A stretch of DNA of 64,000 nucleotides from Sandaracinaceae bacterium (GTDB lineage Bacteria > Myxococcota_A > Polyangia > Polyangiales > JAFGIB01), in the NCBI GenBank assembly GCA_017881055.1, contig JADGRF010000196.1, positions 29,031 through 93,030 of the forward strand. Reading direction: 5' to 3'. The notes under the pieces are model-generated. The model was not told where the DNA came from and searched no databases. It saw only the letters and a list, made by a program, of their open reading frames with translations. The position numbers were made by a program, and so were the translations under genes. Positions 14,768 to 26,389 of this stretch are shown here, piece by piece (positions within the stretch are counted from its first letter, which is position 1; every line of letters starts with the position of its first letter).

Positions 14768-16303
14768 CTAGTGCTTCACGCGCTTGTGCAGCGTGACGTC
14801 GAGGCTCGCCACGTGCTCAACGCCCGCGAAGTCCGCGGCCTGCACGACGCGCGTCTCGATCGCATAGCCAGGCACGTAGACCAGCAGCTCGTAGCTGCGG
14901 TCCACGTGCATCCCGGAGACGCGGACATCCGGCGTGAACCCGATCAGCTGGTAGACTTGCGCGCCGGGCGGCGTCGTGATCACGCGTACCGTGCCAAGCG
15001 AGCCCTTGGGCGCGCCGGGCGCTTGGGGCAAGAGCGTGGCACCGAGCTCGACGTCGGCGCCGGAAGCGAGCTCCTTGCCGGTCTGCATCGCGAGCTCGTA
15101 GCGAGCTTGCCCTTGGCCCGCGCTTTCCCAAGCTGCGTCAGCTGGCACGACCGCGCGGGTCGGGACGCGGCCGTTCGCGATGGCGACGAATTCCTGCGCC
15201 ACACCGACGGGCAGATCCGTTGCAAGCGCGGGACCGGGACCTAGGCGCAAGAAGACCTGCGCGTGCGGCGGCGTGGACGTCACATGGAGCTCACCGCTCT
15301 CGATTACGCTTGCAGCTGACGGCGCGGACGCGACCGGAGCGACAACGTCGCTGGCAGGCAGGCCGAGCAGCTTGCGGGCGCCCATCTGGCCGACCGTGAT
15401 GTAGGCGATGCCGAGCACGACCGCGGCGAAGAAGAACACGCCGCCGATCACCGCGCCTCCACTCTTCGGACGCGGCTCGTCCTCGAACAGGTCATAGGTA
15501 CGCACGCGCCGACCCGACTGGGTTTGAGGTTCCGGCGCACGGGCTGGTACAGGGACTGGCGTCGGTGCAGGCGCTGCTGCGGGGAACGGTGTGCGCGCCG
15601 CCGCGCCGGCCTCACGCGCACCGGCCGGTGGCGCATCCTTTGCAGCTGACGGAAGCGAAGGGATCGTCGGCGCAACCGCAGCCTTGGTGACAACGTCGGG
15701 CGGACGCGGGGCCGGGGGCGCTACGTCAGGCGCGCTAGGCGCCGGCGCTGCTGGCCTCGGCTTCTTCTGCGTCGGCGGCTCTTCCGGATCGAGCCCCAAG
15801 AGCGCGTCCAGCTCGGCATCGAGCGCCGCCTCATCCGGTCTGCCGCTCGGCCGATTGCCCACGCGCGCGCCTTCGCGCTGCGCTTCACGCAGAAGGCGCG
15901 CAAGCACGCGCCGAGTCGCGCCCCGATTAAGCGGCAGAAGGCACGCTTCCAGATCATCGCGCAAACCCGCCAGCGTCCACTTGCCGGAGCTCGGTCCCTC
16001 CTCGACCAACTCGAGCAGCATCGACGGAACGCCCGGAGCAGACGAGACCAGGAGGTCGCCCAGCACCATCAACACCGCGCGTGTCGCCGCTTCGTCCGTG
16101 GCGCGCGCAGCCGCCGGGTCGACCATGATCTCGCCGACCTCGCCCAGCCACACGTCGCTGGTGCGCAGACGCACCGGAGCGCGCACGATCTGCTCGCAGA
16201 CCTCGAGTGCGATGAACGCACCGATCTCGCAGGGCAGCGGTATCCCCTTGCGCTGGAGCTGCTCCCGCAGCTGTTCCACGGTGACCTCGAGATCGTCTGA
16301 CAC
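14768..16303 (-). CDS. membrane protein: degenerate kinase-like N-terminus, Pro-rich linker, TM helix, two PEGA-like domains
   Basis: GTG start with an AGGA upstream. TM helix GGVFFFAAVVLGIAYITV. PEGA-like VTSTPPHAQVFL and VITTPPGAQVYQ. The N-terminal segment resembles a kinase C-lobe without catalytic residues. Confidence 0.6.
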   Translation of the reverse strand: MSDDLEVTVEQLREQLQRKGIPLPCEIGAFIALEVCEQIVRAPVRLRTSDVWLGEVGEIMVDPAAARATDEAATRAVLMVLGDLLVSSAPGVPSMLLELVEEGPSSGKWTLAGLRDDLEACLLPLNRGATRRVLARLLREAQREGARVGNRPSGRPDEAALDAELDALLGLDPEEPPTQKKPRPAAPAPSAPDVAPPAPRPPDVVTKAAVAPTIPSLPSAAKDAPPAGAREAGAAARTPFPAAAPAPTPVPVPARAPEPQTQSGRRVRTYDLFEDEPRPKSGGAVIGGVFFFAAVVLGIAYITVGQMGARKLLGLPASDVVAPVASAPSAASVIESGELHVTSTPPHAQVFLRLGPGPALATDLPVGVAQEFVAIANGRVPTRAVVPADAAWESAGQGQARYELAMQTGKELASGADVELGATLLPQAPGAPKGSLGTVRVITTPPGAQVYQLIGFTPDVRVSGMHVDRSYELLVYVPGYAIETRVVQAADFAGVEHVASLDVTLHKRVKH

Positions 16304-16390: not shown

Positions 16391-17113
16391 TCAGCGCGAG
16401 CTAGCCGCGGCCGCGAACGCTTCTTGGACCGAGAAGGCTCCTGACAGCAGGGCCCTGCCGCAGACCGCGGCGCGAACTCCGCGTTCGGCGAGCGCCCGAA
16501 TGTGCCCGAGGTCGCCGATACCACCGGAGGCAATCACGGTCGCATTCACCTGCTCCTGCAGTGCCAGCGTGGCATCGATGTCGGGTCCTTCGCGCGTGCC
16601 GTCGCGCGCGATCACCGTGTGCAGGATGGCTGCGACGCCCCAGCCATCCACCTCACGCGCCAAGTCGCTGGCGCGCTTGCCGCTGGCTTCGAGCCAACCT
16701 TCGATCGCAACTTCACCGTCGCGCTCGTCCACGGCCACCACGACTGCGTTCGGCAGCTCGCTGCAGAGCTTACGCACGAACGCAGGATCTTTCACCGCTG
16801 CGGTCCCGAGCACCACGCGCTTGGCGCCGCTGTCCAGCCAGCGCCGCGCGATCTGCTCGTCGCGAATCCCCCCGCCGACCTGAATCTGCATCGGGACCGT
16901 GCGCAGGATCGCTTCGATCACAGCCAGGTTCTTGGGCTCTCCGTCGCGCGCACCGTCGAGGTCGACCACGTGCAAGCGGCGCGCACCGGCGTCGAAAAAC
17001 ACGCGCGCCTGCTCGACCGGCCGCTCCGAATACACGGTGACCTGATCGTAGCGACCCTTGTGCAGACGTACGACCTTGCCGCCCAGCAGGTCGATCGCGG
17101 GAATCAACTCCAT
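16391..17113 (-). CDS. hisA: 1-(5-phosphoribosyl)-5-[(5-phosphoribosylamino)methylideneamino]imidazole-4-carboxamide isomerase
   Basis: MELIPAIDLLGGKVVRL... and GGGIR, VIASGGIG blocks typical of HisA. Confidence 0.92.
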   Translation of the reverse strand: MELIPAIDLLGGKVVRLHKGRYDQVTVYSERPVEQARVFFDAGARRLHVVDLDGARDGEPKNLAVIEAILRTVPMQIQVGGGIRDEQIARRWLDSGAKRVVLGTAAVKDPAFVRKLCSELPNAVVVAVDERDGEVAIEGWLEASGKRASDLAREVDGWGVAAILHTVIARDGTREGPDIDATLALQEQVNATVIASGGIGDLGHIRALAERGVRAAVCGRALLSGAFSVQEAFAAAASSR

Positions 17114-17127
17114 AAGCTACTCCGCAA

Positions 17128-17721
17128 CTACTCCGTGAGCGTGCCCTTGGTGGAAGGGACCGATGACGAACGTGGATCCAGCTCCACGGCGTCGCGCAGC
17201 GCGCGCGCAAACGCCTTGAAGCAGATCTCGATGATGTGATGCAGCACTTGGCCGGAGACCATGTGCATGTGCAAGTTGCAACCGGCACCGCGCGCGAAGC
17301 CTTCGAAGAAGACCTCGGCAAGCTCGGTGTCGAACTCACCCACTTTCGCCTTGGGCATCGGCACGTCCCAGACGAAGTACGGGCGACCCGACAGATCGAG
17401 CGCGCAGGTCACGCAGGCTTCGTCCATCGGCAGCGTGGCCGAGCCGTAGCGGCGAATGCCCTTCTTGTCACCAAGGGCGCGCGCCACCGCTTGGCCGAGC
17501 GTGATGCCGAGATCCTCGGTGGTGTGATGACCGTCGATCTCGACGTCGCCCTGCGCATCGACTTTCAGATCGAGCATGCCGTGGCGCCCAAGCTGGTCGA
17601 GCATGTGACTCAAGAACGGCAGCGGGGTCTTCACCACGTGCACGCCACTGCCATCGAGGTCGACCTCGACGTGGATCTGCGTCTCGCGGGTCTTGCGCTC
17701 GAGCGTGGCCTTCCGGGACAT
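17128..17721 (-). CDS. hisB: imidazoleglycerol-phosphate dehydratase
   Basis: RKTRETQI..., HHTTEDLGI and HHIIE metal-binding blocks. ATG at 17721 is preceded by AAGGTG. Confidence 0.92.
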   Translation of the reverse strand: MSRKATLERKTRETQIHVEVDLDGSGVHVVKTPLPFLSHMLDQLGRHGMLDLKVDAQGDVEIDGHHTTEDLGITLGQAVARALGDKKGIRRYGSATLPMDEACVTCALDLSGRPYFVWDVPMPKAKVGEFDTELAEVFFEGFARGAGCNLHMHMVSGQVLHHIIEICFKAFARALRDAVELDPRSSSVPSTKGTLTE

Positions 17722-17792
17722 CGGCCGCACCTTAGCACGGCCCTCTGCAGGGGCTCACGTTTCCAGCGCGGCCCGGCCGCGTCAACCGCGGC

Positions 17793-18275
17793 TCAGCCCT
17801 GCTTCAACTGAGCTTCGATTTCCGCCAGCTTGCGTAGCAGCGCCTCGCTGCCCGGCTCGTGCTGGAGCGCAATCTGCAGGTGCAAACGCGCCTGCTTCCA
17901 GTTCTTGGCGCGGATCGCCTGCTCGGCCTTCGCGAGGAAGGGTCGCGCGCGACTGCTGTGCACGTCGGCCTGGCCCGGCGGCACGCTGGGCCGGATGCTC
18001 TGCCACGCCTGCTCGGGATCGAAGCGCAGCTTGCCCTGTGCCAGCTGCTGATCGTACGCGCGCCGCTGCTCGGGATGCGTCAAGACCCGATAGGCTTCGG
18101 TCGCACGGCGATAGATGCGCCCTGCCCGAGCGCCGCCGTCGGGATCATCGGCATGACGATCCGGATGGTAGCGGCGAGCGAACGCGCGGAACGCCAGCTT
18201 GATGGCGTCGGCGCTGGCGTCGTGCGGCAGATCGAAGAGCGCATAGTAGTCGAGTTCGTCGAGACGCTTGGCCAT
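17793..18275 (-). CDS. J-domain protein with a TPR-like C-terminus
   Basis: DYYALFDL...AFRAFARRYHPDRH (HPD present). ATG at 18275 lies 4 nt after the stop of the upstream Hsp70-like gene. The longer track ORF would overlap that gene. Confidence 0.8.
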   Translation of the reverse strand: MAKRLDELDYYALFDLPHDASADAIKLAFRAFARRYHPDRHADDPDGGARAGRIYRRATEAYRVLTHPEQRRAYDQQLAQGKLRFDPEQAWQSIRPSVPPGQADVHSSRARPFLAKAEQAIRAKNWKQARLHLQIALQHEPGSEALLRKLAEIEAQLKQG

Positions 18276-18279
18276 GACG

Positions 18280-20940
18280 CTATCGCTTGCCGGCCCGGAT
18301 GGAATTTCCTTGGCGCGAGCGCATGCGCTCGATGTCGCCGGGTTCGATCGCACCCACGAGGCTCACACGAATCGCCTGCGCTTGGCCCGTCGTGCGATCC
18401 TGCGCCTTCACGAGCAGCGTGCCGTCCGCGTCGATGATGAACGTCACGGCGATGCTGATCTCGCCACGCCGCCCCGTGCGCAGTCCCATGAGCTCGATCT
18501 GACCGAGCACTTGGTTCTCGTCGGTGCGGCGCGCCTCGCCCTGACAGACGCGCATGCTCACGACCACCTGGTTGTCCTGGCTGGTGGAGAAGATGCGCGT
18601 CTGCTCGGTCGGGATTGGCGCGTTGCGTTCGATGACCTGCTCGCAGAACCCACCCGCGGTCTCGACCGACAGCGTGTGGGGCGTGACGTCGAGCAGCAGC
18701 AACGGCGCGTTCGGGCGCGCGGGCGCGGGGAACTGACTCTGCGTCGTGGCGACGGCAGCAGGTGGAGCCGCAGGCACGGCATCCTTCACGGCGGGCGTGG
18801 AAGCCGGCATCGACACGGGTGTCGCTGCAGCTGACGGCTGCGGCGCCTTCCACACGGGGGCCGGGGCTGGCGCGACGGGCGCCGGCGCCGACACTTGACC
18901 CGCTCGCAGCGCCGCCGCCTCCTTCGCCAATGTCACATCGCCTGGGTTCTTCGCGATCAGCTCGTCGTAGATGGCCAGCGCGCGGTCGACATGCCCCTGC
19001 GTGGCAAAGAGGCGCGCCATGGAGTGCGTGCGGATCGGCTCCTGTGCGCTCACAGGTACTTGCGACACAGGTGCAGCGGCCGGAGCAACTGAGGCCGCGG
19101 GCGCCGCCGGAGGCGCGAGAGAAGCCGCGCGCTGTGCAGCTTTCGCTTTCGGCGTCTCGGCCAAGGTCGACGTGGCGGGCTTCGTGACGCGCGGCGCGGG
19201 CGCCGGGCTCGCCGCTTCGCGCCGCTGCGCCTTGAGCGCCGCCGGCACGGCTTCCTCGGCGATCTCGTTCATCGCCAGCGGGAATGCCGCTGCGTCAGCT
19301 GGAACGCGTGGCGCGGGCGGCAACGTGACCGGCGCCGCGCTCGGCTGCGGGATGCTCCGCGGCAAACCCGACGGCCGCTTGCCGAGCTTCGCTCCGGGCG
19401 TCTCCGCCAGGGTACGAGTTGGCGCTGGAGCGCGCGCGCTCTCCAACACGGCCGCAATCGGCGGCGGCGTCGGCAGCGCCGCGCCGGCGGCCAGCGGCGC
19501 GGGAACCGGCGGTGCCTTCGAGCCGACACCCGTCAGCGTCGACTTGGGCATTGCGGCCGCGCGCGCGGGCGCGGGGTCAGGTCGCTGCGCCACGGTCGTT
19601 GGCAAGTCGTCGAACGGCGCGTCTGGGTTGCGCACCGCAACACTGGTCGGCTGATCTTCGAAGCCACTGCTAGGCGGGCTCGACTGCGCGAGCGAGCGCG
19701 GCTTCGCATACTCGAGTGTCGGCTCCGAGCGCATGCGCGGCGGCAGCGGCGTGCCCGACCGCGTCTTGGTCAAGCTCTGCACGGGATCCTGCCGGTTCGC
19801 CGACAGCGCAAAACCCTGCAGCGCGGCGCCCTGCGCCACGACCAGATCCGGATCTACGCTCGACTGCGGCCGCACGCCAAAGTACTCGCCAACCATGTCG
19901 CGAACCTTCGGTGTGCGCGTCTGGCCGCCGACCAAGATCACGCCATCGAGCTGCGACGGCCGCACACCCGCCAGGCGCAGCGCGTCTTCGCAGATGTCGA
20001 ACGTGCGACCGATCAAACCGAAGATCATGTGATCCAGCTCGGAGCGCGCGAGCCCGAACACGAGATCGATCGGCTTGCCGTTCGAGCTATATGCGACTTC
20101 CTGCACGGTCACTTCGGCGCGCTCGAGCAGCGACAGCTGACACTTGGCCCACTCGGCCGCCAAGCACACCCGCTCGTACGCTTGCACGTCCTGCGCGAGA
20201 TCGATGAAGTGCTTGGCCAGGAACTCGGCGACCATCTTGTCGGCGATCAAGCGATCGATGTCGTCGCCGCCCAAGTACGTGTCACCGGCCGTTGCGACGA
20301 CTTCGATCACGTCACCGGAAAGCTCGAGGATCGAGATGTCGAACGTGCCACCGCCGAGATCGTAGACCGCGATGCGCTGGTTCGTGTTGGCTTGGTAGCC
20401 GTACGCGAGCGCGGCCGCCGTCGGCTCGTTCAAGATGCGCAGCACGTTGAGGCCGGCGATGCGCCCGGCGTCGCGCGTCGCCATGCGCTGCAGCTCGTTG
20501 AAGTTCGCCGGCACGGTCACGACCGCGTTCACGCACGACTGACCGAGCGCTTCTTCCGCCACCTTGCGCAGCTCGCGCAGCACGAACGACGAGATCTCGG
20601 GCAGCGAGTAGAGCTCACCGCGCGCCTGCACCATCACCCCACCGGTCGCGCCCTCTTCGAGCTTGAACGGCAAGCGCTCGGCGGCGCGGCGCACCTCGGG
20701 ACTGCGGAACGGACGACCGATCAAGCGCTTGACCGAGAACACCGTGTTCGTCGCATCGACGAGGCGCCGCTCGCGCGCCGGATGGCCGACCAGAATCTGC
20801 CCCGACGGATGGAACGACACCGTGGACGGCGTCAGCAGGTGCCCGCCTTCGTCGCGCAGCACGCGCACGCGGTTTTGATCCGCGTACGCCACCACCGAGT
20901 TGGTCGTCCCCAGATCGATGCCGAGAACGGGGCTCGCCAT
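18280..20940 (-). CDS. atypical Hsp70 family protein (NBD + ~366-aa disordered insertion + SBD-beta, no lid)
   Basis: GIDLGTTNS, DLGGGTFD and VGGQTRTPKV in aa 1-380. LLLLDVTPHTLSVETAGG... from aa ~747. The Pro/Ala-rich segment between them is encoded at nt 18703-19800. Confidence 0.88.
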   Translation of the reverse strand: MASPVLGIDLGTTNSVVAYADQNRVRVLRDEGGHLLTPSTVSFHPSGQILVGHPARERRLVDATNTVFSVKRLIGRPFRSPEVRRAAERLPFKLEEGATGGVMVQARGELYSLPEISSFVLRELRKVAEEALGQSCVNAVVTVPANFNELQRMATRDAGRIAGLNVLRILNEPTAAALAYGYQANTNQRIAVYDLGGGTFDISILELSGDVIEVVATAGDTYLGGDDIDRLIADKMVAEFLAKHFIDLAQDVQAYERVCLAAEWAKCQLSLLERAEVTVQEVAYSSNGKPIDLVFGLARSELDHMIFGLIGRTFDICEDALRLAGVRPSQLDGVILVGGQTRTPKVRDMVGEYFGVRPQSSVDPDLVVAQGAALQGFALSANRQDPVQSLTKTRSGTPLPPRMRSEPTLEYAKPRSLAQSSPPSSGFEDQPTSVAVRNPDAPFDDLPTTVAQRPDPAPARAAAMPKSTLTGVGSKAPPVPAPLAAGAALPTPPPIAAVLESARAPAPTRTLAETPGAKLGKRPSGLPRSIPQPSAAPVTLPPAPRVPADAAAFPLAMNEIAEEAVPAALKAQRREAASPAPAPRVTKPATSTLAETPKAKAAQRAASLAPPAAPAASVAPAAAPVSQVPVSAQEPIRTHSMARLFATQGHVDRALAIYDELIAKNPGDVTLAKEAAALRAGQVSAPAPVAPAPAPVWKAPQPSAAATPVSMPASTPAVKDAVPAAPPAAVATTQSQFPAPARPNAPLLLLDVTPHTLSVETAGGFCEQVIERNAPIPTEQTRIFSTSQDNQVVVSMRVCQGEARRTDENQVLGQIELMGLRTGRRGEISIAVTFIIDADGTLLVKAQDRTTGQAQAIRVSLVGAIEPGDIERMRSRQGNSIRAGKR

Positions 20941-21007
20941 GCGCCGACCCTAACCCGCGCGGCGCGCGGCCCTCAACCCTTTAGGCGCCGTTTCGCGCAG
21001 GACCGCG

Positions 21008-23791
21008 TCAAACTTCGGGTGTTCCGCCAGCGCCGTCGTCACCGTGGTCGTCGGAACCAGCGCTGGGATCGCCGGCATCACCAGTTTCGCCAGCTGGCGC
21101 CGGCTCGGTGCCACCCGGTGGGATGCGCGAGTTGCGCGCTTCGTCGTCGCGCTCGGCGAGCTTCGCTACGTCCACGACGCGCTCGCTCTCGCCCAGGCTC
21201 ATCACGCGCACACCTTGGGTGTTGCGACCGACCTCACGCACCTGCGCAACCTCGGTGCGAATCACCTGGCCACCGTTCGTGATGCACATGAACTGCTCGC
21301 TCGGTACCACCAAGCACAGGTTCACGACCTCACCGTTACGCTCGGAGGTCTCCATCGCGATGATGCCGATGCCGCCGCGACCCTGCACGCGCCAGTCGCC
21401 CACGGGCGTGCGCTTGCCGTAACCGTTCGCGCTGACCGTGAGCACCTGCTGCTCGACCTTTTGCGAGCCCGCCTCCGGCGCTTCGCCTTTCGAACCCGCC
21501 TGCGGCGGTTCTACCTGAATCACGTCCATGCCGATCACGCGGTCGCCCTCACGCAGCTCGATGCCGCGCACACCGCGCGCATCGCGGCCCATCGGACGCA
21601 CATCCGCGATGTTGAAGCGAATCGACATGCCGCGGGCGGTGCCGAGGATCACGTCCTGGCCTTCTTTCACGACCTTGGCCGTGAGCAGCGCGTCTTCCGG
21701 CGCGAGCCCCACCGCGATGATGCCGGTCGAACGAATGTTCGAGTACGCGGCGAGCGACGTGCGCTTGACCGTGCCGCCACGCGTGCACGTGAGCAGGTGA
21801 TCGCCCTCGACGAACTCCTTGATCGGCACGATCGCAGCGACGCGGTCGCCCGGATCCATGCCGACGAAGTTCACGATCGCACGGCCACGCGAGGCACGCC
21901 CCGACTCCGGGATCTCGTACACCTTCTTCAGGTACGCGACGCCCTTGTCGCTGAGATACAGCACGTGATCGTGGTTGTTCGCGATGAAGATCTGTTCGAC
22001 GAAATCTTCCTCGCGCGTGTCCATGGCGCGCTTGCCGCGACCGCCGCGACCCTGCGCGCGATACTCCGACGTCGGCACGCGCTTGATGTAGCCGGCGTGG
22101 CTGACGGTCACGACCACGTCTTCGTTGCTGACGAGGTCCTCGATGCTGATGTCGCCTTCGTCGGCGACGATCTGCGTGCGGCGTTCGTCGCCGTACCGAT
22201 CGCGGATCTCGTCCAGCTCCCGCACGATCACGTTCTTGAGCTCGCTCTCGCTGGCGAGGATCGCCTGCAGGCGCACGATCGTCTCGCACAGCTGGCCGTA
22301 CTCGGCGGCCAGCTTGTCGTGCTCGAGGCCGGTCAAGCGCGACAGCCGCATCTCGAGAATGGCCTTGGCCTGACGCTCGGACAGAAAGTAGTCGCCCCGC
22401 GCCTTGGCAACGTCGATCTCAGCCTGCGGACGCCCCGCACGCAGCACGAAGGCTTCGAGCCCCTTGAGCGGCAACGCCATCAAGTCGCGACGCGCGTCGT
22501 CGACGTCGCGCGCGGCGCGGATCGTCTTGATCACCAAGTCGGTCTCGGTCACGGCCATGCCGAGACCTTCGACGATCTCGCGCTGGCTCTCGGCTTCACG
22601 CAGCTCGTAGCGCGTGCGGCGCGTGACCACCTCGCGCCGATGCTCGATGAAGTAGCCGAGCGTGTCTTTCAAGTTGAGCAAACGCGGCCGGTTGCCCACG
22701 ATCGCCAGGTTGTTCACACCGAAGCTGCTCTGCAGCGGCGTCATCTGGAACAGCTGGTTCAGAACGATCTGCGGCTCGGCATCGCGCTTGACCTCGATCA
22801 CCACGCGCATGCCGTCGCGATCCGACTCGTCGCGCAGGTCGCTGATGCCCTCGATGCGCTTCTCGCGCACGAGCTGCGCGATCTTCTTCACGAGCTCGGC
22901 CTTGTTCACCTGGTACGGCAGCTCGGTGATCACCACCTGCTCGCGATCCGACTTGCCGGGGATCGGCTCGAACATGGTGCGCGCGCGCATCACGATCCGA
23001 CCACGACCCGTGTGAAACGCTTGGCGAATGCCCGCGATGCCATGCACGAAGCCGGCGGTCGGGAAGTCCGGTCCTTTGAGACCGATGCGACGGCGCGGCT
23101 TGGGCGTCTTGTCGTTATCGTTATCGTTATCGGACGACTCGTCGTCCGACGCTTCCGGCTCGTCGATCATCAGCTCGTCGATCGAGATCTCGGGATTCAG
23201 GATCACGCGAATGGTCGCGTCGATCACTTCGCGCAGGTTGTGCGGCGCGACGTTCGTCGCCATGCCAACGGCAATGCCCGACGAACCGTTCACCAGCAGG
23301 TTGGGCACACGGCTCGGCAGCACGAGCGGCTCGCGCTCGGACTCGTCGAAGTTGGGACCGAAGTCGACGGTCTCCTTGTCGATGTCGGCGAGCAGCTCGG
23401 TTGCGAACCGAGCCATGCGCGACTCGGTGTAACGCATTGCAGCCGGCGAATCGCCGTCGACCGAGCCGAAGTTGCCCTGGCCGTCGACGAGCGGGTAGCG
23501 CATCGAAAACGACTGCGCCATGCGCACGAGCGAATCGTAGACCGCCGCGTCACCGTGCGGGTGGTACTTGCCGAGCACTTCGCCGACCACACGCGCCGAC
23601 TTACGGTACTGGGTGTTCCAGTTGAGCTTCATCTCGTGCATCGCAAAGAGAATGCGGCGATGCACTGGCTTGAGGCCGTCGCGGACGTCGGGGATTGCGC
23701 GTCCGATGATGACGGACATCGCGTACTCGAGGTACGCGCTGCGCAGCTCGTCCTCGATGGCGACAACGATCTTGGAGGTGGGTTCAGCCAT
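21008..23791 (-). CDS. gyrA: DNA gyrase subunit A
   Basis: [24 protein letters not shown], the catalytic region AAMRYTE, and a GyrA box in the first CTD blade (QGRGGRGK). Acidic C-terminal tail. Confidence 0.95.
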
Positions 23792-23958
23792 GAGAGCGCG
23801 CGCACGCTACCACACGGAAACTGCGCTTGGGATCCCAGGTTGATCCGACCCGCCCTCGCCAACGACGTTTCTTGGAATTGCCAACCTGGTTGCCGTGGCG
23901 GCTCGCCTTTGGCGCTGGAATCTGGGAGCTTTCAGGACGACTCACGTAGGCACTTCTT

Positions 23959-24336
23959 TTGCAGAGTGTCCTTCCGGAGATCTCCGTGCCGCGTACCGTT
24001 CCAACGCTGATGATCGTGTGCTTCGCGGGCTGCGTTGGCCTACTCGCAGACTGCACGTCGCGCACCTTGCCACTGCCGCCACCGGAGGTCAGCAGCGTGA
24101 GTCTGCCCAACTCGCTCGGTCAGGTCACGGTGTCCGGTTACGCGCTCGAGGGCGCTTCGATCGGCGTGGTCAACGATCGCACTCTCGCCGGCACGATCAC
24201 GACCAGCGCGAAGTCCAACTGCGATCGCACGTGCCCGTTCACGGCCACCGTTCCCGCGAAAAGCGGCGACGGTCTGCGCGTCTGGCAGTTCTTCGAGACC
24301 GAAGGCTCGATCGAAGAGGTAGTCCCCACTCCGTGA
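23959..24336 (+). CDS. hypothetical small secreted protein or lipoprotein
   Basis: High GC3 frame with a hydrophobic N-terminus containing Cys (..LMIVCFAGC..LLADC). The start is ambiguous (TTG at 23959 or ATG at 24010). Followed by a terminator-like element. Confidence 0.5.
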   Translation: MQSVLPEISVPRTVPTLMIVCFAGCVGLLADCTSRTLPLPPPEVSSVSLPNSLGQVTVSGYALEGASIGVVNDRTLAGTITTSAKSNCDRTCPFTATVPAKSGDGLRVWQFFETEGSIEEVVPTP

Positions 24337-24361
24337 GGTAGGAGTCCCGCGCGGTTTTTTT
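24326..24361 (+). terminator. candidate intrinsic terminator
   Basis: ACTCC(24328-24332)/GGAGT(24341-24345) and a GC-rich CCGCGCGG, followed by T7 (24355-24361), overlapping the stop at 24334-24336. Confidence 0.4.
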
Positions 24362-24395
24362 GACCGGTGGACGACTCTTCCCTACATGGTTTTAC

Positions 24396-25283
24396 ATGGA
24401 AAACCAAGTTCGCGATCTGGAGCAGTTGGAGGAACGGGATCCTCAGGACCGCGGCCGACGCATCGGCATGGTCTTGATGGCGACGCTGGGCATCGTCGCA
24501 CTGACCTTCGCCATGGGCGTGGTCGTGGGCAAGGCCGCGGAGCCGGCAGCGAGCACCAAGGATCCGCTCGATCAGCTCGACCGCGTGGCCGCAGCCACCG
24601 CGAAGCCTAGCGCGCCCGCCGCAGCTGCCGCGAAGGGCGAGTCGACCGCCGTCAACGCGGCGGACCTGTCGTTTCCGAAAAGCCTCACCGAAGAAGAAGA
24701 CCGTCCCGAGGTGATCGCGGCCCTGGCCGCCGCCGCGAAGGAAGAAGAGACGCTCGACGACAAGGTTCCCGCCGCTACCGTGCTCGCGGCGACCGCCGTC
24801 GACGCGCAGACCGCCGCCGGTGCAGCGCGGACGACTCACGCTGCGCAACCGTCAACTGCAGCCGACGACGAAGCGGGCGACGAGCCTGCCCATCCGGCAG
24901 CCCTACCCGCTGCCGTGGCTGCGGGTTCAGCGGGACAGAAGCTCTTGAAGGCTGCCAAGCACGACCAGCTCGTCGCCGCCGCGCTCCCCGAGGCCGCCCC
25001 GAAAGAGCGCGCGCCCCACGGCGAAGAGGGTGAATTCACGCTGCAGATCGTCAGCTACGACGCGCCGGCTCCAGCCCAAGCGTTCGCGAGCAGCCTGCGC
25101 GCGAAGGGGCACGAGGCGTTCGTGACCTCCGCCGACGTGCCGGACCGCGGTCGCTACTACCGCGTGCGCATCGGACCTTTCGCCACGCGCGATCGTGCCG
25201 CAGCCTACCGGCACAAATTCGAAAACGACGAGCACATGAACACGATCGTCGTTCGCCGCTCCAAAGACGAGAGCGAGCGCTGA
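24396..25283 (+). CDS. SPOR domain-containing membrane protein
   Basis: TM helix IGMVLMATLGIVALTFAMGVVV. C-terminal SPOR-like FTLQIVSYDAPAPAQAFASSLRAKGHEAFV...YYRVRIGPFATRDRAAAY. Confidence 0.8.
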   Translation: MENQVRDLEQLEERDPQDRGRRIGMVLMATLGIVALTFAMGVVVGKAAEPAASTKDPLDQLDRVAAATAKPSAPAAAAAKGESTAVNAADLSFPKSLTEEEDRPEVIAALAAAAKEEETLDDKVPAATVLAATAVDAQTAAGAARTTHAAQPSTAADDEAGDEPAHPAALPAAVAAGSAGQKLLKAAKHDQLVAAALPEAAPKERAPHGEEGEFTLQIVSYDAPAPAQAFASSLRAKGHEAFVTSADVPDRGRYYRVRIGPFATRDRAAAYRHKFENDEHMNTIVVRRSKDESER

Positions 25284-25348: not shown

Positions 25349-26389
25349 ATGGATGAGAAGACGTTCCACGACCTGCTGCAGCGCGGCGCGCGTTATCGCG
25401 CCAGCGACGCGCTGTTCAAGGTCGGGCAACCGCCCGCATTCCGCGTAGCGGGCAGCCTGCACTACCTGCAGGGCGAGCGTCTGCGTCCAGAGCACACGCT
25501 CGCGCTCGCGGAAATCGTGATGCGCCAGTCGCGCTACAAAGGCGATGTGCACGACGTGTTCGAGCACGACACGGCGTACAGCGTCTCGGGGCTCGGCCGC
25601 TATCGCGTGAACGTGTATCGCCAACGCGGCACGTTTGCGCTCGCGCTACGCAACATCCCGCTCGAGATTCCGACCTTCGAGCAGCTTCGCTTGCCAGCCG
25701 CGGCGCACGCGCTGGCCGAGGTCGAGCGGGGCCTCGTGCTCGTGGTGGGAGCAGCTGGAAACGGCAAATCGTCGACCTTGGCGGCGATGATCGGGCACAT
25801 CAACCAGACCCGTCGCTCGCACATCGTCACGATCGAAGACCCGATCGAGTTTCTGCATGCCGACCAGCTCGCCACGATCTCGCAGCGCGAAGTCGGCGTC
25901 GACACGCCCAACTTCGCGTCGGCGCTGCGTGCCGCCCTGCGCCAGGATCCCGACGTGATCTTGGTCGGCGAGATCCGCGACGAAGACACCATGGACACGG
26001 CGCTCAAGGCCGCTGAGACCGGTCACTTGGTGCTGTCCACGCTGCACACCGCGGACGTCGCACGCACCGTGGGGCGCATCCTTGCGCTCACCAAATCCTC
26101 GGATCCGGGCGAGACGCGCGAGCGCCTGGCGGACAACCTCAAAGGTGTGCTCGCGCAACGGCTGCTGCCTACGCCGGACGGTGAGAACCGCGTGCTGGCC
26201 GCCGAGGTGCTCGTGGTCACCGGCACGGCGCGCGAGTCGATCCGCAGGCCCGAGAAGAACCTGCCCATCAAGGACGTGATGGAGCGCGGCGTGCACCCGT
26301 ACGGCATGCAGACCTTCGAGATGAGCATGCGTCAGCTGGTGACCGAGGGGAAGCTCTCGGTCGAAGTGGCGCGGCAAGCGCTCGATTGA
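25349..26389 (+). CDS. pilT: PilT-family type IV pilus retraction ATPase paralogue
   Basis: Walker A GAAGNGKSST, Asp box/Walker B DPDVILVGEIRD and the His box region LSTLHT. 346 aa. Confidence 0.85.
   Translation: MDEKTFHDLLQRGARYRASDALFKVGQPPAFRVAGSLHYLQGERLRPEHTLALAEIVMRQSRYKGDVHDVFEHDTAYSVSGLGRYRVNVYRQRGTFALALRNIPLEIPTFEQLRLPAAAHALAEVERGLVLVVGAAGNGKSSTLAAMIGHINQTRRSHIVTIEDPIEFLHADQLATISQREVGVDTPNFASALRAALRQDPDVILVGEIRDEDTMDTALKAAETGHLVLSTLHTADVARTVGRILALTKSSDPGETRERLADNLKGVLAQRLLPTPDGENRVLAAEVLVVTGTARESIRRPEKNLPIKDVMERGVHPYGMQTFEMSMRQLVTEGKLSVEVARQALD

Follow-up and report, generated by a model that had tools for sequence, protein, structure and literature searches.

Can an Hsp70 chaperone keep its ATPase and its substrate clamp coupled across hundreds of disordered residues? 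Hsp70 allostery is thought to rely on a short conserved linker between the two. The locus considered here lies in a 64,000-nucleotide (nt) stretch of a Sandaracinaceae bacterium contig (JADGRF010000196.1), hereafter the window. It encodes an Hsp70 of 886 amino acids (aa), with a long disordered insertion directly before the linker and no alpha-helical lid, followed by a J-domain protein. An earlier note, made from the sequence alone, described this arrangement and found it unclear how the linker could dock across such a tether.

We favour, with moderate confidence, the reading of a functional Hsp70 clamp that lacks a lid and is activated by its J-protein, and whose substrate-binding domain beta (SBD-beta) would move on a long leash bearing clade-specific docking motifs. 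The family keeps every coupling residue despite ~12 to ~730 disordered residues before the linker and the lack of a lid.

A continuous gene for a lidless Hsp70 with an insertion

The Hsp70 reading frame is one genuine, uninterrupted gene. Its in-frame GC content at third codon positions (GC3) is 0.72–0.95 over the full gene and 0.72–0.87 within the insertion, and a protein identical to it is present in the public collection (P0001). The same unbroken architecture is found in 120/120 independent homologues, including P0058 in the complete genome of the cultured Sandaracinus amylolyticus (DSM 53668), whose neighbouring J-protein is P0123. The earlier note had named two genes, a frameshift or a mis-predicted region as alternatives; none of them holds, since every orthologue has the insertion. 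Three antisense open reading frames (ORFs) on the plus strand (18971–19654, 18762–19187 and 19716–20207) were rejected, as their GC by codon position is not coding-like.

Domain borders come from a residue-level alignment to E. coli DnaK (PDB 2KHO), in which query residues 4–385 match DnaK 3–388 and 747–878 match 389–521. The Pfam HSP70 profile (PF00012) scores 524.5 bits (cut-off 20.6), and its match falls into two stretches, the first covering aa 5–383. The nucleotide-binding domain (NBD) bears the signatures GIDLGTTNS (aa 7–15), DLGGGTFD (aa 194–201) and VGGQTRTPKV (aa 337–346). The second part starts with PLLLLDVTP (aa 746–754) and has AVTFIIDADGTLLVKA at aa 831–846. All motifs quoted for the 886-aa protein in the earlier note were located where it had put them. 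Its borders, an NBD up to about aa 380 and a linker with SBD-beta from about aa 747, agree with the 1–385 and 746 onward found here.

Between the two parts lie 360 residues, close to the ~366 proposed earlier for nt 18703–19800 and measured at nt 18706–19785. They are predicted to be disordered, with Pro and Ala together making up 42%. The site is the hydrophilic opening segment of the interdomain linker (DnaK 385–388). According to PMC6843406, the first linker segment (DnaK 384–386) is hydrophilic, its length varies, and the eukaryotic cytosolic Hsp70s carry four extra residues after D385.

The last residue corresponds to DnaK 528, which falls within lid helix A, and no lid lies beyond. The loss of the lid and the C-terminal tail, as first proposed from the sequence, is borne out by the DnaK alignment, which stops in helix A, and by the homologues, 120/120 of which end within 16 aa from there.

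The family was surveyed in two sets. The close set is the 120 best homologues. The distant set holds the best 150 matches of a filter-free search over 1.84 billion representatives of 50%-identity clusters. All 120 close homologues run from NBD through insertion to SBD-beta and then a tail of ≤16 aa, with insertions of 90–531 aa by this count; measured over 119 of them, the insertions span 102–543 aa with a median of 250.

Both the NBD and SBD-beta are present in 141/150 distant representatives. The insertion is ≥50 aa in 126 of these 141, reaching 731 aa at the longest, and <20 aa in 12. A C-terminal tail >40 aa is found in only 10 of the 141, so lidlessness is the family norm. The insertion-length variation that the earlier note wanted surveyed is wide: the shortest insertions, in Nannocystaceae, have ~12 aa and the longest has 731 aa, while the site stays the same. 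The insertion is a variable-size expansion at a single site of a lidless family.

The linker itself varies little. LLLDVT is invariant in 120/120 homologues, mostly with Pro directly ahead (consensus P-LLLDVTP), and the core pattern of the family is P-[LIV][LIV][LIVM]DVTP. A taxonomic survey based on the source names from the protein searches returned Polyangiales, Sandaracinaceae, Nannocystaceae and unclassified Myxococcota, which points to a large family of the class Polyangia in Myxococcota. In a genome-contig search with the whole Hsp70, the matches listed were three unrelated generic Hsp70s (Gracilibacteria, Ferruginibacter and Moellerella HscA).

Two side observations concern the Hsp70s themselves. 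Four distant ones (P0343, P0357, P0367 and P0298) have N-terminal extensions of 400–620 aa before the NBD and keep a longer C-terminus, a derived architecture distinct from the lidless inserted family. The other is a set of family cysteines without E. coli DnaK counterparts, C136, C267, C317, C766 and C799. Among them C317 is invariant and C136, C267 and C766 are ≥90% conserved; C799 stands within the consensus RVCQGE, where mortalin likewise has Cys. Since atypical hsp70 mutants of M. xanthus lose oxidative resistance (PMC8265645), these cysteines might by analogy be linked to redox sensing.

Coupling residues, predicted docking and the J-protein partner

Functional residues of DnaK were mapped on an alignment of 87 family members (DnaK numbering throughout). 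Equivalents of the catalytic D8, K70, E171, D194, T199 and D201, of the Pro-switch P143 and R151, of the J-contact R167, N170 and T173 and of the linker L390–V394 are kept in 87/87. At the NBD/SBD interface, Q442 and L454 are kept in all 87 and N415 in 86, and K414 is replaced by Arg in 82. The core of the SBD-beta pocket (T403, F426 and V436) is invariant too. The substrate arch is smaller, M404 being replaced by V/A/T and A429 by S/G/A.

The nucleotide cleft has changed more. The lower salt bridge R56–E264 is lost, with E/D at the R56 equivalent and A/M/L at the E264 equivalent, and the hydrophobic-patch residue L257 has become Q. The upper bridge (DnaK K55–E267) is kept as R56/E263. In the framework summarised by Mayer (PMC8215388), Hsp70s with fewer bridges across the cleft release nucleotide faster on their own and are independent of GrpE. 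As one bridge and the patch are lost here, nucleotide exchange is probably less GrpE-dependent. No grpE gene was found in the window locus or in the related loci examined.

The Hsp70 was modelled by AlphaFold2 (AF2) from the family alignment, without templates. The predicted local distance difference test (pLDDT) scores are >90 in the NBD, 80–93 in SBD-beta, ~40 in the insertion, 93–97 in helices at 639–683 and 65–86 in the C-terminal helix 867–885. The model fits the domain-docked ATP-state structures, not the undocked ADP-state ones. Its root-mean-square deviation (rmsd) and target-normalised TM-score are 3.3 Å and 0.79 to 4B9Q and 3.3 Å and 0.78 to 7KO2 (both docked, ATP), 5.3 Å and 0.87 to docked truncated DnaK (7KZU), and 3.8–6.4 Å and 0.87–0.88 to docked AMPylated BiP. 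The undocked structures lie far off, at 18.6 Å and 0.58 for 2KHO (ADP) and 26.6 Å and 0.67 for 2V7Y.

If the tether is treated as a worm-like chain, the linker and SBD-beta have an estimated effective concentration at the NBD of ~0.17–0.46 mM for 361 residues versus ~20–30 mM for 12 residues. The long tether thereby lowers it ~70-fold relative to a 12-aa linker. By this estimate, the value at 361 residues would still be well in the intramolecular range. The allostery puzzle of the long tether seems largely defused, because LLLDV does not vary, nor do the interface residues, and AF2 docks the domains in the ATP-type manner.

The J-protein gene is on the same minus strand, which the earlier note had not given, co-oriented with the Hsp70 gene, and the junction reads TAG-cgtc-ATG. 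The earlier note rightly had this 160-aa protein start 4 nt past the Hsp70 stop with an intact HPD, which is at aa 37–39. Pfam DnaJ (PF00226) scores 56.1 bits on it against a cut-off of 27.8. In 72 aligned J partners, H37, P38 and D39 never vary. Neither do A110, R111 and P112, ahead of the C-terminal helices, and the motif [AS][RK]P[FLYW] is found in 120/120 J homologues.

The tail of the J-protein had been called TPR-like. AF2 does give it three helices (111–122, 126–139 and 144–159, pLDDT 84–92) after a disordered stretch at aa 95–103, but the TPR_14 profile reaches only 18.1 bits, under its cut-off of 23.5. In a Foldseek search, the J model matches J-domains at an rmsd of 1–2 Å and whole HscB weakly, the latter at 15–18 Å over the full length. 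The scores stay below the cut-offs of the DnaJ (58.8 vs 377), CbpA (37.1 vs 403) and HscB (34.1 vs 198) models. The protein is assigned to class C, a J-domain with a short tail, because only the J-domain matches and the DnaJ and CbpA thresholds are missed.

The pairing is regular. A J gene for a product of 157–179 aa is directly downstream of the Hsp70 gene in 8/8 loci examined. These include the extremes, a 546-aa Nannocystaceae Hsp70 with an insertion of ~12 aa (L009) and a 1175-aa Hsp70 (L010), and the J-proteins of both align full-length with that of the window. At least 120 full-length proteins belong to the J family (E < 1e-59), and when the two match lists were compared, at least 14 J and Hsp70 matches sat on contigs of identical size. 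The private Hsp70/J pair suggested in the earlier note is upheld by this adjacency and by the invariant HPD, and the J-protein appears to be the dedicated partner of the Hsp70. A promoter and terminator scan of 17000–24500 gave nothing beyond the shuffled expectation and is no operon evidence for or against.

The proposed cycle would run as follows. In the ATP-bound state, the LLLDV strand and SBD-beta would dock on the NBD intramolecularly, and the partner J-domain and a bound segment would trigger hydrolysis. In the ADP state, SBD-beta would be let go on a leash of ~10–15 nm. With no lid and a shrunken arch, substrates would exchange quickly, and there could be room for bulky or folded clients.

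The ARPF motif and the three-helix tail of the J-protein would presumably choose the client or the cellular site. The insertion would be mainly tolerated slack, and its short motifs and its three-helix module may most simply be docking sites. Gene integrity, the architecture and its conservation, the J pairing, the conserved residues and the predicted docked fold are shown. J-stimulated ATPase activity and ATP-controlled substrate binding are inferred from residue conservation and the docked model, and the kinetics, the co-transcription and the motif roles are likewise putative.

The insertion, the competing readings and the locus

Ala accounts for 24% of the insertion and Pro for 18%, and Cys is absent. 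Among the close homologues, the column identity of the insertion is 0.12–0.31, compared with 0.6–0.94 in the NBD and SBD-beta. Most of it is composition-driven, with parts under constraint.

One such part is the duplicated motif that the earlier note had pointed out, TRTLAETPGAK and TSTLAETPKAK, which is indeed there. Its pattern TL[AL][ED]xPxAK is kept in 25/119 homologue insertions, 13 of them with two copies. The second copy is more widely kept than the first, for example as TLLDSPRAK in homologues 47–49% identical overall. The window clade has other motifs, GF[DE]DEPTxV / TPFDDLPTTV, FDD-x-PT-x-V, STLxGVGSKA and SQFPAP. The insertions of the Sandaracinus clade bear different ones, G[KR]VAL[KR][KR] and GPAFQP[KR].

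Another part is folded. MARLFATQGHVDRALAIYDELIAKNPGD (aa 641–668) had been read as a TPR-like helix pair. A helical module is predicted there, at pLDDT 93–97, but it has three helices (639–647, 651–664 and 669–683), and Pfam TPR_14 gives it E = 3.3e-4 and 21.5 bits, under the cut-off of 23.5. By AF2, it is one helix pair with a capping helix, and so is the J tail. The two modules were compared as possible relatives and this was rejected: the hhalign probability is 1.9%, so they have a similar shape and no detectable homology. A profile derived from the module finds it in 25/120 homologues. The module and the duplicated TLAETPxAK motif are traits of one subclade, not of the whole family.

A third pattern, [LM]P[APS][VIL], occurs 147 times in 188 insertions against 51.8 in shuffles, with reversed controls depleted. 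The window Hsp70 has only degenerate versions of it (AVPAALK and TLPPAP). Separately, the 1175-aa orthologue P0363 (L010 5001–8528) has an insertion of ~660 aa with 12 copies, such as DLPAV, GLPALK, DLPAIK, GLPAVK and AMPAVR; as in the window, gyrA and the J gene flank it.

Several points weigh against a docked, J-activated clamp with docking motifs on its leash. In the family, a hydrophobic residue takes the place of D326, which in DnaK lies on the NBD where SBD-beta docks, so the interface is not identical to that of DnaK. AF2 leans to docked Hsp70 conformations; the docked model hence supports an intact interface but is no proof, and it says little on docking at this tether length. The insertion is mostly poorly conserved, with a Pro/Ala/Arg make-up as expected of GC-rich low-complexity drift. 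The three closest relatives (P0002–P0004) lack the three-helix module in the profile search, so the module cannot be essential for the core function. The [LM]P[APS][VIL] counts include related, hence non-independent, sequences, and the conserved gyrA and hisB flanks are uninformative on the client.

The alternative that survives best takes the insertion as a neutral spacer, tolerated GC-rich repeat drift at an indel-tolerant site, with the lidless Hsp70/J core doing everything. The length spread from ~12 to 731 aa among syntenic orthologues, the low column identity, the residue make-up typical of GC-rich codons and the absence of the module from the closest relatives would all fit. Moreover, the insertion-less Nannocystaceae orthologue retains the same J and hisB neighbours. 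Drift would not readily keep TL[AL][ED]xPxAK, often twice, between proteins 47–60% identical overall, nor a confidently folded module across divergent homologues, nor the ~three-fold excess of [LM]P[APS][VIL]. We consider a purely neutral spacer unlikely, though it deserves serious weight.

Conversely, the tether may be more than slack and act as a regulatory device. The ligand of its motifs and module would be the protein's own SBD-beta, the J tail or a cellular scaffold, and their occupancy would gate docking. We regard this as doubtful. If true, it would be an Hsp70 control mode not yet described, and the protein would be a naturally 'split' Hsp70, with ligands of its disordered linker switching the allostery, or would assemble into chains or condensates.

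A further alternative is that the tether serves as a pseudo-substrate. The protein's own SBD-beta would bind its motifs for autoinhibition, or a neighbour's would do so to build chains or condensates, and J and ATP would release them. HscA binds the LPPVK segment of IscU, which the enriched [LM]P[APS][VIL] and LP[AP]V resemble, and the lidless small-arch pocket is intact. An SBD is reported to engage the linker in trans in BiP and human Hsp70 (PMC4608358, PMC3696110), and lid-truncated BiP crystals are oligomeric (7A4U, 7A4V). However, the degeneracy of the motif in the window Hsp70 and an AF2 model that leaves the insertion unstructured instead of in the groove make such self-binding rather improbable.

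Allostery might instead have been lost altogether, the NBD becoming an Hsp110-like exchange partner of DnaK and SBD-beta an ATP-independent holder. A review proposes lost canonical function for many myxobacterial DnaK derivates and draws the Hsp110 parallel (PMC13580251), and both the ~70-fold drop in effective concentration and the non-conserved D326 equivalent point the same way. The invariance of LLLDV, R167/N170/T173, P143/R151 and the SBD-beta interface is hard to explain without coupling, though. Hsp110 linkers are divergent whereas this family's are not, and a dedicated J-protein with an invariant HPD always adjoins. An uncoupled derivative is therefore highly improbable.

Finally, practically no weight is left for an artefact, a frameshifted assembly or a fusion of an NBD-only gene with an SBD gene: assembly errors are common in long GC-rich low-complexity stretches and nothing more specific was found in favour, while the single open frame with high GC3 all along, the equally continuous homologues with the complete Sandaracinus amylolyticus genome among them and the antisense ORFs without a coding-like profile speak against it.

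The favoured reading, a coupled clamp on a leash, leaves the features placed as follows.

Table 1. Positions in the window of the Hsp70 and J-protein genes, their parts and the flanking genes (all on the minus strand)
Feature	Position (nt)	Strand	Basis
Lidless Hsp70 gene, 886 aa	18280..20940	-	ATG start, TAG stop; Pfam HSP70 524 bits
NBD, aa 1–385	19786..20940	-	aligns to DnaK 3–388; AF2 pLDDT >90
Pro/Ala-rich disordered insertion, aa 386–745 (360 aa)	18706..19785	-	pLDDT ~40; Pro+Ala 42%
Short motif copy 1, TRTLAETPGAK, aa 508–518	19387..19419	-	TL[AL][ED]xPxAK pattern
Short motif copy 2, TSTLAETPKAK, aa 590–600	19141..19173	-	TL[AL][ED]xPxAK pattern
Three-helix TPR-like module in the insertion, aa 634–683	18892..19041	-	AF2 helices; TPR_14 sub-threshold
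Interdomain linker P-LLLLDVTP, aa 746–754	18679..18705	-	corresponds to DnaK 389–396
SBD-beta, aa 755–865	18346..18678	-	corresponds to DnaK 397–507; pLDDT 80–93
Helix-A stub and basic tail, aa 866–886 (21 aa)	18283..18345	-	AF2 helix 867–885
Partner J-protein gene, 160 aa	17793..18275	-	Pfam DnaJ 56 bits
J-domain, aa 9–75; HPD aa 37–39 (nt 18159–18167)	18051..18251	-	four-helix J fold by AF2
J-protein tail, ARPF motif and three-helix TPR-like module, aa 108–160	17796..17954	-	AF2 helices
gyrA, upstream flank	21008..23791	-	Pfam DNA_topoisoIV and DNA_gyraseA_C
hisB, downstream flank	17128..17730	-	Pfam IGPD

The flanks recur among the related loci. The gyrA gene is upstream within 0–3 genes in 6/8 of them, and hisB comes directly after the J gene in 6/8. 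The order of PilT-like ATPase, SPOR protein, gyrA, hsp70, J and his genes is common to the window and Sandaracinus. We read these shared flanks as conserved housekeeping synteny, not as a functional clue.

Some further observations were made on these neighbours. In the window GyrA, the N-terminal domain contains a highly acidic low-complexity insertion at ~aa 210–236, and the protein ends in a long, acidic tail rich in Gly. On the plus strand, divergently upstream of gyrA, lie a SPOR-domain protein (24360–25283) and a PilT/T2SSE-type ATPase (25349–26389). The arrangement of SPOR and a small ORF upstream of gyrA is seen also in the Sandaracinus and metagenome loci (L004 and L008).

On the other side, the window (16391–17730), L005 and L007 have hisB and then a single His_biosynth gene, and Sandaracinus (L004 8689–11427) and L006 have hisH, hisA and hisF. 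After hisB and the His_biosynth gene, the window has a 511-aa ORF (14768–16303, minus strand) with no Pfam match. Proteins of 551–735 aa without a recorded Pfam match hold the same position in L004, L005, L007 and a JGI locus.

Comparison with known Hsp70 systems

The protein belongs to the Hsp70 superfamily by its profile score over the threshold, its phosphate-loop motifs and its hydrophobic linker followed by a beta-sandwich SBD. It falls short of the narrower models. The NCBIfam DnaK equivalogs NF001413 and TIGR02350 give 550.7 against 648 and 531.3 against 822.55, and the HscA models TIGR01991 and NF003520 give 478.5 against 708.55 and 467.8 against 620.

With canonical DnaK it shares the catalytic and J-contact residues, the LLLDV linker, the SBD-beta fold with its pocket core and the predicted docked state, and its NBD is 45–47% identical to those of DnaK and mortalin by structure alignment. 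Unlike DnaK, it has neither the alpha-helical lid (helices A–E) nor the C-terminal tail, carries the 360-aa disordered insertion before the linker and has lost the lower cleft bridge and the hydrophobic patch. The DnaK/DnaJ/GrpE system differs also in its cofactors, as the partner here is a minimal J-protein instead of DnaJ and no grpE is nearby.

The laboratory lid-truncated Hsp70s (7KZU/7KRU, BiP 7A4U and M. genitalium DnaK without SBD-alpha, 5OBU) have the same content after the linker. They are the best structural matches by target-normalised TM-score (0.87–0.88). Those are artificial constructs, whereas here the lidlessness is natural, family-wide and combined with a tether.

Hsp110 and Grp170 are likewise Hsp70-derived with long disordered insertions. 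However, theirs interrupt SBD-beta and the lid, their linker sequences have diverged and they have lost J stimulation (PMC13580251), whereas the linker of the window Hsp70 is canonical and invariant. The eukaryotic cytosolic Hsp70s have an insertion at the same site, of 4 residues against 100–730 here (PMC6843406).

Myxococcota carry many unexplored "DnaK derivates" with shortened or missing lids and unstructured additions at the termini (PMC13580251, PMC8265645), and M. xanthus has 15 Hsp70-family genes. The present family comes from the same phylum, but the additions mentioned in the reviews are N- or C-terminal and do not lie at the NBD/linker border. The M. xanthus DnaK homologue StkA, reported to be 540 aa long, regulates exopolysaccharide, and the genes after it, stkB and stkC, are not J genes (PMC4319316). 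Set against the window Hsp70 by description only, StkA has a length that fits a lidless form and a role that is regulatory, not housekeeping, but no adjoining J gene.

In the open-access literature, neither the NBD/linker insertion nor its range of lengths nor the J pairing was found described, and on natural lidless or interdomain-inserted Hsp70s the open-access texts gave only general reviews. The natural length series at the linker, with its fully conserved coupling residues, is somewhat surprising, while the fold, the chemistry and the logic of the gene pair are familiar. The family offers a natural evolutionary series, with a cultured host (Sandaracinus amylolyticus) included, that sets tether length, effective concentration and lid loss against the Hsp70 cycle. 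It is a concrete, syntenic and widespread case among the poorly explored bacterial DnaK derivates, and with its identifiable J-protein, a tractable entry point to them.

By analogy, the closest in operating logic appear to be the specialised HscA/HscB and HscC/DjlC pairs, each a diverged Hsp70 beside its own J-protein, probably GrpE-independent and with few clients (PMC8215388). HscB resembles the J partner in size and layout, a J-domain with a small helical C-domain. Unlike the window Hsp70, HscA and HscC both keep shortened lids and neither has an interdomain insertion. HscC further has an insertion of 4–8 aa in L1,2 and a deletion of DnaK residues 76–101 (PMC8215388), which are both absent here, the DnaK alignment being continuous through residues 76–101 and L1,2 (VETAGG vs IETMGG).

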